NCBI GenBank assembly: GCA_963723515.1
Contig: CAVRQT010000003.1
Location: 448,001 to 512,000 of the forward strand
Length of the DNA stretch: 64,000 bases
Source of the DNA: Vulcanimicrobiota bacterium
GTDB lineage: Bacteria > Vulcanimicrobiota > Vulcanimicrobiia > Vulcanimicrobiales > Vulcanimicrobiaceae
Reading direction: 5' to 3'
The position numbers were made by a program. This document shows, piece by piece, positions 54,001-57,000 of this stretch. Within the stretch, counting starts at the first letter, position 1; the number at the start of each line of letters is the position of its first letter.

Positions 54001-57000
54001 GAATAAGCCGATCTACGATGAGGACAGCGAGCGCACGCTTTTGGACGTGATGGCCTCGCAAAAAACCTCGGATCCCGAGGAACTCGTCATCAATCAGGAA
54101 GTCTCGCAAGATATCAAGGAGCGCATTCAAGAGAATCTCTCCGAGCTTGAATCGCAGGTGCTGCTTTCGTATCTCGAAGGCAAGAGCTACCAGGAGATGG
54201 CGCGCGACCTGGGCCGCCACGTCAAGTCGATCGACAACGCGCTGCAGCGCGTGAAGCGGAAAATCGAAAAGAATCTCTCGGAGATCGAACTACCGTAATC
54301 GAAGAGGCGCCAAACGGCGCCTCTTAAATAAGGCGGCTTCTTAACTGTATGCAGTTCACGACGAAGCGCTTAACGCTGCGTAAACTTCAGCCCGAAGATG
54401 CGCCGCTGCTCGTTTCGCTCTATGGCAACGCGCAAGTGCAGCAGACGCTGCCGCAACCGGAGCCGGTGACGGTCGAGCGCGAGCGAGAGATCATCCAACG
54501 GCAACAGGGCATTTGGAAAAAAGAAGGCTCAGGCATGTTCGCGGTCTTCGAAACAGCCGGCGGCGATTTTGTCGGCTGCTGCGGCCACCTTTTTTGGGAT
54601 ATCGACGGCAAACATGAAACGGAAGTCGCCTATGCGCTTCTTCCGAAACATTGGCGCAAAGGCTATGCCACCGAGGCGGCACGGGCGCTCAAAGAGGATG
54701 CATTTGAGCGGCTTGGCGTAAAGCGCGTGATTTCGCTGGTCATGCCGGGACAACGCGGGCTCCGGGAAAGTTGCGCAAAACAACGGCATGCACGTCGAAA
54801 AGCAGACGGTGCTGCTCGAAAAATACCACGTGAACGTTTGGGTGGTGGAGAAGCCGGCCGCGGTTTAGAACTCTAGCACTAACGCTATGGCAACGCTGAG
54901 TTTTTCGGACGGCCATCTCGACATTAAGTTATCTGTTCTCGACCGGCTGATCGGCTTTCATGGGTCGTTCCACATCCCGCTCGCGCATATCACGAATGCT
55001 TACGTGAGTGATTTTGAAGAGCTGGAATTGCAATTTCGCCTTTATGGCACGAATCTAGGATATCTCAAGTCTGTTGGCATTTTTGCGAATCCCGACGGCG
55101 TCATTTTCTGTGATTTGGCCGGCGAAGGCGACTGCTTAGTGATCGAAACGCGCGGCGAGCGTTTTCCACGGATCGCCGTCACGCCGAGCAAGGACGTTGA
55201 TGCGAATGCGCTCGCGCATGAAATCATGCGTCGAATCCCGGATAGCGGCCCCGAATAGCGATCGCACTAGCCGGTTAGAGGTCGTCTTCACCGAGTTCTG
55301 AGACGATCGTGCGATACAGTTCGTCTCGATCTTTGATCGGGTCAACGATGTAGATTTGTGCCGTGGCTCCGCGCCGCTGGGAATCGATAGCGACAGTTAC
55401 ATGGCGTCGTGCGCAGACGTCCATGCAGCTCGTGTTGATCGCGCGAATTTTTCCCCAGAGACCGTCTTGTTTGAGGCGCTCTTTCAGCCAGTCGCGCAGG
55501 TGAAAATCGCCGATCTCGGCAGCTTTATCCGGATCTTCTTCAGGAATGCGCTCTTTTGAGCAGCGCTCACAAACGAGCACCAGACCTGAGGCTCTCCACT
55601 TCGGATTGACGGTCTGCATTTGATTTGAAGTTTCGCTTTGGCCATCGTGTCACCCTGAGCTTGTCGAAGGGCAACGGCACCGGCACTTAAAGGGGCATGG
55701 GACAGCCATGGGGGCGATTACGATGGCCCTTCGACAAGCTCAGGGTGACACCGGGGTAATGCATCACGCGTCCAAACGTAAAAGAAGCGGCCCCTCTCGG
55801 GGCCGCTGTTTTCTTAGCCGACGGAGGGACTCGAACCCACGGCCTGAGGTTTACAAAACCCCTGCTCTACCAACTGAGCTACGTCGGCTTACATCAACGT
55901 TAGTTGTATTGACAACGTGTTCTGCACGAGTTCATCGGCCCTTTGCATCAACTCCGTTCTTGTTGGCTCTGCTAGGTGTCTTGCGGTTCGATGACTACGA
56001 GTCCGGTACTCACGCCCACGTCCTCGGTTCAGTGCTCGGAACGTGGGCGTCAGCGAATGACAATTCGGGCACAGTAGCGTGAGGTTGCTCGGGTGATTGT
56101 TGCGCCAATCGCCGTCGATGTGCTCGACCTCTACCGGCACGTTTCCGGTGACGGGATGTCGCTCAGCCCATCCACAGCGCGTACATTTTAAGCCCAGACG
56201 TCGCGCAAGATACTTTTTGATAAAGCCGTGAATGTGATGGGTCGGCGGATACAGGCCATGCTCGAGAAGCGCCGTGTTGATCTTCCGGCAATGCGCGCGG
56301 TGACATTCCCAAGAACAGAACTTGCCCGCATTCAACTTTATTTCCCCAACACCGCAATTCAAACAATAGCCGCGCCACTTTTTACAACCTTGGTATTCAT
56401 GCACCGATTCTAAAGTTGCCGTGTGCCAACACTATGGCATTCTGCGTGTCGGCTTTGAAGATTATTTTTATGCGCGTTTAATTGGCAGCGCTTTTCTTTT
56501 GGCTATCGTTCTGTTCAAATGAAAGCCCTATTGATCGGTTTCCGGTGGGTTATTCGCTGCGAGATCCGTTCCGTTTGTGATCGGCGCTCCAAGACGGCGA
56601 TATCATTTGGCACGGACAATCACGTGCGTTCAACCGCTCCGCCACGTCGGCCTAATTGCCCAGTAACTCTAGGCGCCGGCGACGACCATTTCAACTTAGC
56701 GGTGGAAGAAGATTGCGAGAATGATCGTGACCCAGGCGCTGAAGATCAGTCCCGAGCCCCAGCGCATTGCCGCAGTCAGCGTCGCTTCCAGTGATGAGAA
56801 TCGTCCTTCGATCCGTTGTTCAAATCCACCGAGGCGATGATCGATGCTCGTAAGACGGTCTCTGACTTGCTCGTATGCGCCTTCAAGGTGCGCCATACGG
56901 ACTTCAAATGGCTGAGCGGTCATAGATCAGTCCTTCTTCGATGCCATTATACTCTTCTTGTGCCCGCCTTTGATGCCGGTGTGACGGCGGCTCATTTTAC

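Follow-up and report, generated by a model that had tools for sequence, protein, structure and literature searches.

The open reading frame (ORF) that adjoins the tRNA-Thr(UGU) gene in this stretch of the chromosome of a soil bacterium probably encodes a free-standing homing endonuclease, which would cut tRNA-Thr genes near the anticodon and would be inherited together with a replacement allele of the tRNA gene. A chromosomal free-standing homing endonuclease at tRNA genes had been proposed in an earlier note on this DNA, and the comparative evidence supports that proposal in part, cleavage and homing being the steps that it would imply. The reading fits because the gene is present or absent at one and the same locus, decays in place, is patchily spread, is under purifying selection, has relatives in phage tRNA clusters, and is accompanied at some loci by relics of older tRNA genes that break at the anticodon. 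The window, that is the whole stretch of 64,000 nt that was analysed, corresponds to positions 448001-512000 of contig C3 of the genome G000, so that contig positions exceed window positions by 448000; the contig coordinates given previously for the ORF are correct, but the offset of 480000 given with them is not. The partner and probable target of the ORF is the tRNA-Thr(UGU) gene, and the parts of the locus are the following:

55275..55619, minus strand: conserved gene of 114 aa, downstream of the tRNA; the right-hand flank common to genomes that lack the HNH gene
55786..55807, minus strand: hairpin resembling an intrinsic terminator, with T run; 9 pairs (8 of them G-C), 8 nt past the tRNA
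55816..55888, minus strand: tRNA-Thr(UGU); Rfam 69.5 bits, the ARAGORN call being one base longer
55889..56404, minus strand: HNH endonuclease ORF of 171 aa; GTG start, stop codon TAA at 55891-55889
56405..56615, minus strand: spacer from the relic to the HNH start; G+C 0.48-0.49 versus 0.55-0.60 around it
56461-56488: second, weak promoter-like site inside the spacer
56616..56651, minus strand: half-tRNA relic of an older tRNA-Thr(UGU) of the type with a long variable arm, 211 nt upstream of the HNH start
56666..56694, minus strand: sigma-70-like promoter match (TTGAAA-17 nt-TAGAGT), just upstream of the relic; a consensus match only
57010..58425, plus strand: gene of 471 aa; the left-hand flank common to the congener G067
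59648..59926, plus strand: cluster of tRNA-Tyr, tRNA-Gly(UCC) and tRNA-Thr(GGU)

No gap separates the two genes, the first base of the tRNA being the base right after the stop codon. The tRNA gene, the sole tRNA-Thr(UGU) gene found in the genome (one match to a degenerate pattern in G000), has no intron and carries one U-U mismatch in its T stem, and the ORF sits between the spacer and this complete tRNA, outside any intron or intein. As a single tRNA is followed by a terminator, the locus does not belong to the tRNA L-arrays. The site at 56666-56694 is probably the old tRNA promoter, which would now point into the relic, the HNH gene and the tRNA. Because a promoter-like site lies upstream, no gap or terminator intervenes between ORF and tRNA, and a terminator follows the tRNA, it is plausible from this layout that both are co-transcribed from the tRNA promoter, and the earlier suggestion that the nuclease gene rides out on the tRNA transcript may be retained to that extent. 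The spacer bears no likeness to the other loci compared. Only 62 nt lie between the 471-aa gene and the tRNA in the congener G067, and in many relatives tRNA-Thr(UGU), with or without an HNH gene, stands directly 5' of the tRNA-Tyr/Gly/Thr(GGU) cluster. A search for sequencing runs that contain this DNA listed no RNA run and a single DNA run, weakly matched with 0.18 of the words. Three soil sequencing runs gave short contigs only, from the source or other organisms, none of which spans the HNH gene.

Judged by its residues, the product of the ORF is an HNH (His-Me finger) endonuclease, formed by an N-terminal zinc ribbon, an HNH core with two CxxC pairs and a C-terminal helical tail. The catalytic residues, which had been left unchecked, are present and conserved in an alignment of 16 intact relatives: H95 and N107 are invariant (16/16) and H116 is kept in 15 of the 16, which accounts for the general-base histidine, the structural asparagine and the metal-binding histidine or asparagine, and C74, C77, C112 and C115, the two zinc-binding CxxC pairs, are invariant in all 16. 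Both Pfam matches fall just below their cut-offs (HNH_3, 20.3 bits against 24.8; HNH, 19.2 bits against 21.4), and PHROG families of HNH proteins match at E 1.2e-15 and 1e-13. In the structure model (pLDDT 82.7) strands at 92-95 and 108-111 are followed by a helix, and the top Foldseek rows are HNH nucleases (McrA, ScoMcrA, Cap5 and the HNH of Cas9), weakly matched at E 0.03-0.5 (best 0.033); a sequence search of solved structures with the protein returned nothing relevant. The single NCBIfam match is to the HNH part of IscB (E 1e-6), and an IscB-like RNA-guided nuclease was rejected on the grounds that the match is limited to that part, the RuvC part is absent and the protein has just 171 aa.

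A six-frame search of the whole genome finds HNH relatives at exactly three places, each adjoining a tRNA gene, as had been claimed. The second copy (C3:347680-348192, minus strand) is intact, encodes 170 aa and is, as noted before, 38% identical to the window ORF, an identity that holds over residues 67-139. The third (C3:1059416-1059619, plus strand) is a 69-aa open frame within a frameshifted gene, and its frame ends 47 nt before tRNA-Gln(CUG)-tRNA-Glu(CUC). Since the 45 tRNA genes with 500 nt on either side cover 1.64% of the genome (and not 2-3%, as had been estimated), the probability that three of three copies lie beside tRNAs by chance is about 4e-6, which upholds the earlier conclusion. 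The second copy is not, as was thought, another case of the same arrangement: it lies 438-439 nt downstream of tRNA-Leu(UAA), on the same strand, and goes with an insert of 224 nt between U34 and A35 of that tRNA. Rfam gave no match when run on 3.2 kb of this locus and a full-length but sub-threshold group I match when run on 371 bases, which suggests a group I-like intron without a gene of its own. Free-standing endonucleases may act together with gene-less group I introns in what is called ‘collaborative homing’, known from F-CphI and the psbA intron of cyanophages, and the tRNA-Leu(UAA) lineage fits that layout, its anticodon being split by a group I-like intron that holds no gene and its nuclease gene lying outside that intron; the interrupted anticodon is likely to be the target site of the tRNA-Leu-linked nuclease. 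The cyanophage case differs in nuclease family and in host gene, and the parallel applies to the copy at C3:347680-348192, not to that of the window.

The association with tRNA-Thr(UGU) extends to relatives, where the earlier observation is both confirmed and widened. Among 101 genomes of Baltobacteraceae (Eremiobacterota), 22 of the 24 close homologues lie directly 5' of the single tRNA-Thr(UGU) gene of their genome and on its strand, the two exceptions being one before tRNA-Thr(GGU) and one within an array of 19 tRNAs. Beyond the family, in the best 80 of 580 relatives from GTDB species genomes, which represent at least five phyla, 69 loci lie directly 5' of a tRNA-Thr gene, with the anticodon UGU in Eremiobacterota and cyanobacteria, CGU in Patescibacteria and Chloroflexota, and GGU once; at 23 of these 80 loci the ORF runs on into the tRNA and uses its U8-A9-G10 as stop codon. 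The HNH gene is found 5' of the tRNA both where the gene order is sigH-tRNA-Thr-Tyr-Gly-Thr and where the tRNA is inverted in place, and the linkage is therefore to the tRNA and not to its flanks. Two sister lineages accompany other tRNA genes, one of them tRNA-Gln(CUG) (27 of 27 loci) and the other the intron-split tRNA-Leu(UAA) (4 of 4), so that three paralogous lineages each go with a different tRNA gene; the copies linked to tRNA-Leu are separated from the insert by 67-439 nt and are thus not intron-encoded. Relatives embedded in arrays occur elsewhere, at L026 (in a family genome) and L158. The tRNA-Thr(UGU) genes were located with a degenerate pattern, an earlier DNA search with the tRNA having returned mostly tRNA-Thr(CGU) (16 of the 20 loci fetched).

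Presence and absence of the gene can be compared at single loci. The congeners G000 and G067 have both flanks in common, with 1334 nt between them in G000 versus 190 nt in G067, where the interval holds only a tRNA of another sequence type; further cases are family loci in both gene orders and the phage pair T5 and HdH2. The tRNA loci of the family also display stages of decay, the HNH gene being intact at 18, broken at five (one of them interrupted by Ns), reduced to 3' remnants at four and missing without trace at about 50, and the frameshifted third copy adds a stage within the same genome as the window.

Half-tRNA relics are found at only three of the roughly 75 HNH loci in Eremiobacterota, and in each of the three the break falls at the anticodon. 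The relic in the window runs from position 1 through the anticodon TGT and has lost one T, and its likeness to tRNA ends right after the anticodon; it matches the tRNA of G015 over 34 nt at 97% (E 2e-11), and the 5' part of the same tRNA type at 15 further family loci. Locus L134 has the last 11 codons of an older HNH gene with tRNA positions 1-37, followed by a complete HNH gene and tRNA, and in L025 a 3' half-tRNA from the anticodon on lies beside the native neighbour and is followed by an inverted block of HNH-tRNA-Tyr-Gly-Thr. A viral locus, L251, carries positions 1-30 of a tRNA-Ala upstream of the HNH gene that precedes tRNA-Ala. Attachment repeats of the integrase type were rejected as the source of the three relics, because integrase repeats leave 3' duplicates of the tRNA downstream (as seen in L089 and L104), whereas the relics consist of the 5' half of a tRNA, placed upstream, or of a 3' half next to a block that is inverted. 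The tRNA gene is thus more than the landing site of the earlier description: at least in the window and in G093, the relics and tRNA types suggest that the tRNA-Thr(UGU) formerly in place, which was of another sequence type, was destroyed and a new one substituted for it.

The tRNA itself is unusually variable. In the same 27 genomes the mean pairwise identity of tRNA-Thr(UGU) is 75%, versus 88% for tRNA-Tyr, 91% for tRNA-Gly and 86% for tRNA-Thr(GGU); that of tRNA-Thr(CGU) is 92.5% (16 genomes). Entropy is near maximal in the anticodon stem, and some tRNA-Thr bodies have an extra variable arm. Identity to the nearest neighbour is 89.0% for tRNAs beside an intact HNH gene, 93.1% beside broken copies and 94.6% where there is none. 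Because the anticodon loop is the same in all tRNA-Thr(UGU) alleles, any immunity of the linked allele would have to rest on the stem or on other parts.

Selection and descent bear on a different explanation, which we consider unlikely: that the ORF is a retained host nuclease, engaged for instance in defence against phages with tRNA arrays or as a factor of the tRNA operon, which shares the strong promoter of the tRNA, is inherited vertically and is often lost. The dN/dS ratio is about 0.1 (0.06-0.22 in the nine of 16 intact pairs with unsaturated dS), and by this measure the intact copies are under purifying selection, as a host gene would be. The distance between HNH genes correlates with that between flanking genes (r 0.40, 41 loci), the HNH tree follows phyla, the tRNA-Gln-linked sister lineage occupies one locus in about half of the 101 family genomes, and defence genes are likewise patchy and decaying. 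At the same 41 loci, in what was a weak test of whether nuclease and tRNA travel as one unit, the tRNA distance follows neither HNH nor flank (r 0.13 and 0.16; partial r 0.07, permutation p about 0.05), a result that tells against the homing reading; as the HNH tracks the flank and the tRNA tracks neither, the HNH gene may have descended within the family largely by vertical inheritance, with turnover of the tRNA next to a nuclease gene that stays in place. The sigH tree, with support on three of 38 inner branches, is too flat for a test of horizontal transfer. Two contigs labelled Acidobacteriota fall inside the Eremiobacterota HNH clade and may be mis-binned, as both show the gene order of the family and L112 additionally has a local repeat in common with it. 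Against a host function, no conserved partner genes were found at the HNH loci by tblastn synteny with the window proteins (ORF clustering was unsuited, since G+C-rich DNA gives long spurious frames), and the tRNA alone is kept. Promoter sharing, moreover, does not predict half-tRNA relics or the replacement of tRNA types between congeners; a close homologue occurs in only two of 101 genomes of a cyanobacterial order; each of the three paralogous lineages has its own tRNA gene; and T5-like and T4-like phages carry the same HNH-tRNA module within their tRNA clusters.

The phage relatives resemble the window ORF both in sequence and in their position against tRNA genes. Matches at E 1e-8 or better occur in 52 phage records, and homologues in T5-like phages align with about 70% of the protein at an identity of 42-48%. 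Those of HdH2 and LPCS28 abut tRNA-Thr, the HdH2 homologue ending on the first base of the tRNA. In HdH2 the HNH gene lies between the positions of T5.059 and tRNA-Thr(UGU), where T5 (NC_005859) has none, and the tRNA-Thr genes of the two phages differ mainly in the anticodon stem. Of the T5 genes, hegC, hegD and hegE (NC_005859) were compared with the window ORF and ruled out as counterparts for want of close likeness. These relatives could mean that the window copy is a passenger of phage tRNA DNA, whereby modules entered by ordinary recombination at tRNA homology, the adjacency was inherited from phages and the tRNA is not, or never was, a target. Consistent with this, tRNAs lie no more than 1.5 kb from 77 of the best 80 of 586 relatives on viral contigs (in 49 the stop codon is followed by a tRNA, and 17 lie directly before tRNA-Thr(UGU)), a viral tRNA-Thr beside an HNH gene agrees with one tRNA type of Baltobacteraceae over 37 nt (97%) in the D and anticodon arms, and tRNA arrays with an HNH homologue occur in family genomes (L026). 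Such an origin by passive carriage is nevertheless rather improbable, given that the intact chromosomal copies are under purifying selection, that the tRNA is most divergent beside intact copies, and that relics of independent origin all end at the anticodon, a pattern that indicates breakage at a specific site and not exchange at any point in the tRNA. Chance adjacency or an artefact of ORF calling, for which the plentiful spurious long ORFs of a genome of 59-60% G+C might be invoked, can be dismissed in view of the three of three copies beside tRNAs against 1.64% coverage, the linkage counts (22/24, 27/27, and 69/80 in the best 80 of 580), the conserved catalytic residues and a dN/dS well below 1.

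For a homing endonuclease, the following course of events may be envisaged. The nuclease gene would be transcribed with the tRNA from the tRNA promoter, the abutting or overlapping stop codon coupling ORF and tRNA; because RNase P would cut at the junction of stop codon and tRNA, expression of the nuclease is probably kept low. The targets of the protein would be tRNA-Thr genes that belong to other sequence types, whose DNA it would recognise and break at or next to the anticodon. The break, in a single-copy essential gene, would be mended from a template in which the nuclease gene is accompanied by its own uncut tRNA allele and which was transferred, we infer, between cells or from phages, so that nuclease gene and new tRNA allele are copied in together; where the far flank of the donor is unmatched, the old half-tRNA would stay behind as a relic. 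After fixation the nuclease gene would decay through frameshifts to 3' remnants and finally to nothing. Mobile endonuclease ORFs of the Allomyces atp6 type, in mitochondria, bring a spare copy of the gene end that they displace, and synthetic ‘cleave and rescue’ drives disrupt an essential gene and carry, linked to the nuclease, a functional substitute for it. The scheme proposed here would resemble both in that an essential gene is broken, a linked replacement is provided and the displaced piece is left as a relic. It differs in that those systems target protein-coding genes or are engineered, whereas here a tRNA gene would be replaced and the linked allele is putatively resistant.

The closest functional parallel is SegB, a free-standing homing endonuclease (GIY-YIG type) in the tRNA gene cluster of phage T4, which cleaves tRNA genes and promotes the inheritance of the tRNA region, and whose stop codon is lost when the tRNA is processed (PMC2330249). 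As in the window, the nuclease gene stands directly before a tRNA gene with its stop codon at the tRNA 5' end, and processing is thought to limit SegB expression; SegB recognises tRNA gene DNA and drives inheritance of itself and of neighbouring tRNA genes, as is proposed here for the HNH protein (PMC2330249). The two differ in fold (HNH versus GIY-YIG), in the site concerned (the T-psi-C motif for SegB, the anticodon for the relic break points), and in setting, since SegB acts in phage co-infection and lies in a tRNA array, whereas the window gene is in a bacterial chromosome beside a single essential tRNA gene (PMC2330249). With the phage genes of the T5 F-Tfl type the window ORF shares the HNH family and the likeness described above, but it is chromosomal, and the T5 reference record lacks a gene at the HdH2 slot. 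In bacteria, an HNH homing endonuclease gene is conserved upstream of long tRNA arrays, e.g. all8564 of Anabaena, and a SegB-like spreading of tRNA genes by it has been proposed (PMC8421152). Published work thus already covers HNH genes both within the tRNA clusters of phages and upstream of tRNA arrays in bacteria, so that the claim of novelty made earlier for a recurrent feature of bacterial chromosomes was too broad (PMC8421152). The all8564 type, likewise a bacterial HNH gene upstream of tRNA genes, heads a mobile array of up to 43 accessory tRNA genes, whereas the window gene abuts one housekeeping tRNA in a conserved operon region (PMC8421152). The likeness seen between them is one of layout; the window HNH found no match at E 1e-8 in a plasmid collection.

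A wider proposal can be put forward only tentatively. One HNH clade may have specialised on tRNA genes, cutting at the anticodon, and may have colonised both the tRNA clusters of phages and essential single-copy tRNA genes in the bacterial chromosomes of at least five phyla; it might then act as a natural ‘cleave and rescue’ element that drives the turnover of tRNA-Thr(UGU) and its odd diversity, which includes bodies with an extra variable arm and bodies whose D and anticodon arms are those of a phage tRNA, and that shuttles tRNA alleles between phage and host. The tRNA-Leu lineage could represent another way of escape, the target being split there by a group I intron. If the reading holds, ORFs that extend into a tRNA gene and end on its U8-A9-G10 are genuine at these loci, and trimming them in annotation is unwarranted. 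If the proposal is true, several hundred small enzymes (140-200 aa) would have long, predictable targets in the anticodon arms of tRNA genes, and their specificity would be directly testable, since putative ‘immune’ and ‘sensitive’ natural alleles are already paired in the data. Gene-less group I introns in tRNA anticodons may, on the same condition, be a shield against such nucleases. The housekeeping tRNA genes of bacterial chromosomes would be exposed to selfish nucleases, and part of tRNA evolution (stem swaps, chimeric bodies, inversion in place and half-gene relics) would be driven by nucleases and not by translation.

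A putative free-standing HNH endonuclease gene (HNH) lies in the window (C3:448001-512000 of a 2.11 Mb assembly in four contigs, genome G000) directly against a tRNA-Thr(UGU) gene, and G1 of this tRNA, at 55888, is the base that directly follows the TAA of the ORF. The contig positions of the earlier note are correct; its offset of 480000 is not, as the window starts at C3:448001. A six-frame search of the whole assembly returned HNH matches at three places, the window ORF and two others.

HNH copies and associated tRNA features of the genome (window coordinates unless marked C3)
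55889-56404, minus strand: HNH ORF of 171 aa, GTG start at 56404, TAA stop at 55891-55889
55816-55888, minus strand: tRNA-Thr(UGU), Rfam tRNA 69.5 bits, one base longer by ARAGORN
56616-56651: tRNA relic (half-tRNA remnant), 211 nt upstream of the HNH start, 97% identical to positions 1-34 of a long-arm tRNA-Thr(UGU), a type with an extra variable arm (E 2e-11)
C3:347680-348192, same strand as tRNA-Leu(UAA): second HNH copy, intact, 170 aa, 438-439 nt downstream of tRNA-Leu(UAA)
Third HNH copy: frameshifted, its frame stopping 47 nt ahead of tRNA-Gln(CUG)-tRNA-Glu(CUC)
C3:348631-348940 (2449-2758 of locus L189), outside the window: split tRNA-Leu(UAA) with a 224-nt insert between U34 and A35

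Eight bases past tRNA-Thr(UGU) there is a G+C-rich hairpin of nine pairs followed by a T run, and a promoter-like TTGAAA-17-TAGAGT stands immediately ahead of the relic. The T stem of this tRNA, the only tRNA-Thr(UGU) of the window, carries a U-U mismatch (GUGGG against CCCUC) and is perfect in most relatives. Two perfectly matching 26-bp arms (55647-55672 and 55726-55751) form an inverted repeat around a 53-nt loop between the tRNA terminator and a 114-aa gene; as one of them is also present at other family loci (L078, L080, L112, L126 and L154), the repeat looks like a small dispersed one. A 75-aa ORF (56696-56923, minus strand), coiled in its N-terminal part and ending in a hydrophobic tail, is found between the left flank and the relic, and this stretch is missing from the congener G067.

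Among 101 sampled genomes of the family, Baltobacteraceae in the Eremiobacterota (Vulcanimicrobiota), 56 have a match at E <=1e-5, paralogues included. The position before a same-strand tRNA-Thr(UGU), which the earlier note had described in family relatives, is borne out in this sample: in 22 of 24 loci with close homologues the tRNA follows the ORF directly on the same strand (21 of 23 without L010, an unpublished genome), at spacings from a 165-nt overlap in open frame to a 174-nt gap. The two exceptions lie ahead of tRNA-Thr(GGU) and within a 19-tRNA array. A degenerate pattern located tRNA-Thr(UGU) in 83 of the 101 genomes, nearly always as a single gene, so that the one linked to HNH has no second copy in the cell. 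The tRNA locus was also taken from 58 further genomes, and all loci were searched with an HMM of intact HNH proteins; HNH was intact in 18, broken in five (one merely interrupted by Ns) and reduced to a 3' remnant beside the tRNA in four (one of them, L106, from an unpublished genome), while about 50 loci had no trace of it. Synteny maps, probed with the window's own proteins, revealed two gene orders: in one, rlmB and sigH are followed by tRNA-Thr(UGU), Tyr, Gly and Thr(GGU); in the other, the conserved 114-aa gene and tRNA-Tyr flank a tRNA-Thr(UGU) inverted in place. As HNH is 5' of tRNA-Thr(UGU) in both, it is tied to the tRNA and not to the flanks. The family also has tRNA arrays, with 27 tRNA genes within 5 kb in L071 (G060:C52:24823-29894), a divergent tRNA-Thr(UGU) among them, and 19 within 3.2 kb in L026 (G091:C3:325310-328543), where an HNH homologue lies inside the array.

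A search with the second copy brought out two further HNH lineages. Its three nearest relatives, two full-length genes with 54-57% identity (G097 and G086) and a fragment of the N-terminal part (G063), all adjoin an intron-split tRNA-Leu(UAA), which with G000 makes four of four loci. Between these copies and the tRNA or its insert there are 67-439 nt; of the three full-length ones two are downstream on the same strand and one is on the opposite strand. The remaining 27 loci returned lie, without exception, directly ahead of tRNA-Gln(CUG) or tRNA-Glu(CUC) on the same strand (23 of 23 without L197, L210, L216 and L218, from unpublished genomes). The gene-less tRNA-Leu insert, 212-241 nt long across family genomes, is present as DNA in 44 of the 101 family genomes. 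Three genomes share a conserved core with variable outer helices, and the insert aligns to the full length of Rfam Intron_gpI at a sub-threshold score (24.6 bits against 50; E 2e-4). We take its position and core to resemble those of cyanobacterial tRNA-Leu and Azoarcus tRNA-Ile introns. No paper on group I introns in Eremiobacterota was found in the full-text literature outside subscription journals.

The association extends well outside the family. An alignment scan of one genome per GTDB species gave 580 relatives, of which the best 80 were examined, about ten being also in the family sample. In 69 of these 80 a same-strand tRNA-Thr gene follows no more than 170 nt from the stop, with anticodon UGU in 51, CGU in 17 and GGU in one, and 23 of those loci use U8-A9-G10 of the tRNA itself as the stop codon. 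Among the best 80 the partner is UGU in Eremiobacterota, CGU in Patescibacteria and Chloroflexota, and UGU in ten cyanobacteria (gaps of 40-166 nt); six Clostridia and Bacilli loci are without a downstream tRNA-Thr. The HNH protein tree groups by phylum and by tRNA partner. In the cyanobacterial order around one such genome, a close homologue was found in only two of 101 genomes, in some of which part of the candidates was scored. Two 'Acidobacteriota' contigs placed in the Eremiobacterota clade may be mis-binned, because both have the family's gene order and one (L112) also has a local repeat in common with it. In a Saccharibacteria contig (L163, 1026-1289) a 26-nt tRNA 5' part and a 34-nt tRNA-Thr 3' part, separated by 200 nt, are found upstream of both tRNA-Tyr and an HNH abutting tRNA-Thr(UGU); they could represent another relic, or a tRNA-Thr that is split or carries an intron.

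Phages show the same anatomy, with 52 phage records matching HNH. The homologue of the T5-like phage HdH2 ends on the first base of tRNA-Thr, and that of the T4-like Cronobacter phage LPCS28 is one base from it. The T5 reference record has T5.059 and then tRNA-Thr(UGU) as in HdH2, with no HNH between, which is a presence/absence difference between close phages; their tRNA-Thr genes differ at about 13 positions, nine of them in the anticodon stem. For the best 80 of 586 viral-contig relatives, tRNAs lie within 1.5 kb in 77 and right past the stop in 49 (Thr(UGU) in 17 of those); a further 22 have tRNA-Thr(UGU) a short way upstream of their ORF. In T5 (L301, NC_005859) the unrelated HNH genes hegD, hegC and hegA (5345-5979, 6943-7607 and 12380-13164) likewise run up to or into tRNA genes: the overlap is 23 nt for hegD, with a tRNA-Gln(CUG) annotated as a pseudogene, and 14 nt for hegC, with tRNA-Ser(GGA), and the hegA stop is 23 nt ahead of tRNA-Ile.

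The partner tRNA varies to an unusual degree. Copies of tRNA-Thr(UGU) from 27 genomes average 75% identity in pairwise comparison, whereas the Tyr, Gly and Thr(GGU) tRNAs of these genomes reach 88%, 91% and 86%, and tRNA-Thr(CGU) is almost invariant (92.5%, 16 genomes). Several body types occur within the family (loci L033-L106; window 55816-55888), congeners can differ in type, and the types interleave among genomes with near-identical sigH proteins. Some, of 82-86 nt, combine a D arm like that of Ser, Leu or Tyr tRNAs with a short additional variable arm of 2-3 pairs, and all five pairs of the anticodon stem are near maximal entropy. The tRNA genes adjoining an intact HNH stand out most: their median identity to the closest other tRNA is 89.0%, compared with 93.1% beside broken copies and 94.6% where HNH is absent (Mann-Whitney p 1e-4, descriptive since relatives are not independent). 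On a low-G+C viral contig (L274, 1718-1792) an HNH homologue is followed by a tRNA-Thr(UGU) whose D and anticodon arms match one Baltobacteraceae type (L065, L077, L083, L102) at 97% over 37 nt and whose acceptor and T arms differ from it, which hints that phage and host have exchanged segments of tRNAs.

Scars in the chromosome bear on where such genes may be cut. G067 and G000 have both flanks in common at 78-80% identity; between them G067 has 190 nt, with only a long-arm tRNA-Thr(UGU) of quite different type, and G000 has 1334 nt. The relic of G000, which also matches the 5' part of the long-arm type in 15 further family loci, loses its likeness directly after the anticodon TGT. L134, which belongs to a Cybelea genome, keeps the final 11 codons of an older HNH with tRNA positions 1-37, likewise ending directly after TGT, and after 235 nt come a complete HNH and a complete tRNA. 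In L025 (G093) the 3' half of another tRNA type, starting at the anticodon, still adjoins its native neighbour gene and is followed by an inverted block of HNH and tRNA-Thr, Tyr, Gly and Thr; this layout is what repair of a broken resident tRNA would give from a donor with the other gene order and one-sided homology. These three independent chromosomal relics, at only 3 of about 75 Eremiobacterota HNH loci, all break at the anticodon and are the best available pointer to the putative DNA cut site. At the viral locus L251, tRNA-Ala positions 1-30 lie upstream of an HNH that precedes tRNA-Ala. As a separate matter, L089 (G056; +1480..+1524 from the tRNA start) and L104 (G076; +1841..+1880) repeat the 3' 40-45 nt of their own tRNA-Thr(UGU) at 95-100% identity, 1.4-1.8 kb downstream, which is the pattern of integrase-type elements inserting into tRNA 3' ends.

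The window protein combines a four-Cys ribbon at its N terminus with an HNH core. The catalytic residues, left unchecked in the earlier note, are conserved along with the zinc cysteines: H95, N107, C74, C77, C112 and C115 are unchanged in 16 of 16 intact relatives, and H116 in 15. PHROG HNH families match it at E 1e-15, and its Pfam HNH_3 and HNH scores fall slightly below cut-offs. An AlphaFold model built from the alignment of relatives (pLDDT 82.7) gave only weak Foldseek rows, yet these were to HNH nucleases (best E 0.033). Values of dN/dS of 0.06-0.22 in 9 of 16 intact-gene pairs, those with unsaturated dS, point to purifying selection on intact HNH genes. Such selection is equally compatible with an active selfish gene and with a host gene, and so also fits a retained host or defence nuclease, which we consider rather unlikely. 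That HNH is a passive passenger of phage tRNA DNA seems quite improbable. Chance adjacency is hardly credible: tRNA genes with 500 nt on each side make up 1.64% of the genome, three of three copies would fall beside them with a probability of about 4e-6, and the earlier claim that each copy does so holds.

HNH is probably a free-standing homing endonuclease that cuts other types of tRNA-Thr gene around the anticodon and is inherited with a linked, uncut allele. The anatomy, the linkage, the decay series, the relic break points and the target variability are directly observed; cleavage, immunity, co-transcription and transfer are inferred. The observation of the earlier note stands, greatly widened, and its reading of homing at tRNA genes is partly supported. 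Over 41 loci, HNH distance correlates with that of the flanking gene (r 0.40), and tRNA distance with neither HNH nor flank (r 0.13 and 0.16; partial r 0.07, p ~0.05), so that a nuclease and tRNA always moving as one piece is not supported as a rule. Much of the HNH history within the family may be vertical; the host tree from sigH is unresolved and hence gives no yardstick for horizontal transfer.

Free-standing endonuclease genes in phage tRNA clusters are already known, e.g. T4 SegB (passages of PMC2330249), and for an HNH gene that is conserved ahead of tRNA arrays in bacteria, a role in spreading these arrays has been proposed (passages of PMC8421152). In the full-text literature outside subscription journals, we found no paper that describes, across bacterial phyla, HNH genes lying directly against single housekeeping tRNA-Thr genes, or relics mapping a break at the anticodon. 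With the stop codon at or inside the tRNA 5' end, RNase P would remove it from the HNH message, and the same loss has been proposed to keep SegB scarce (passages of PMC2330249). In the probable cycle, HNH would be transcribed together with the tRNA, its protein would break tRNA-Thr genes of other types in the anticodon region, repair would copy in HNH with its linked, uncut tRNA allele, and HNH would decay afterwards.
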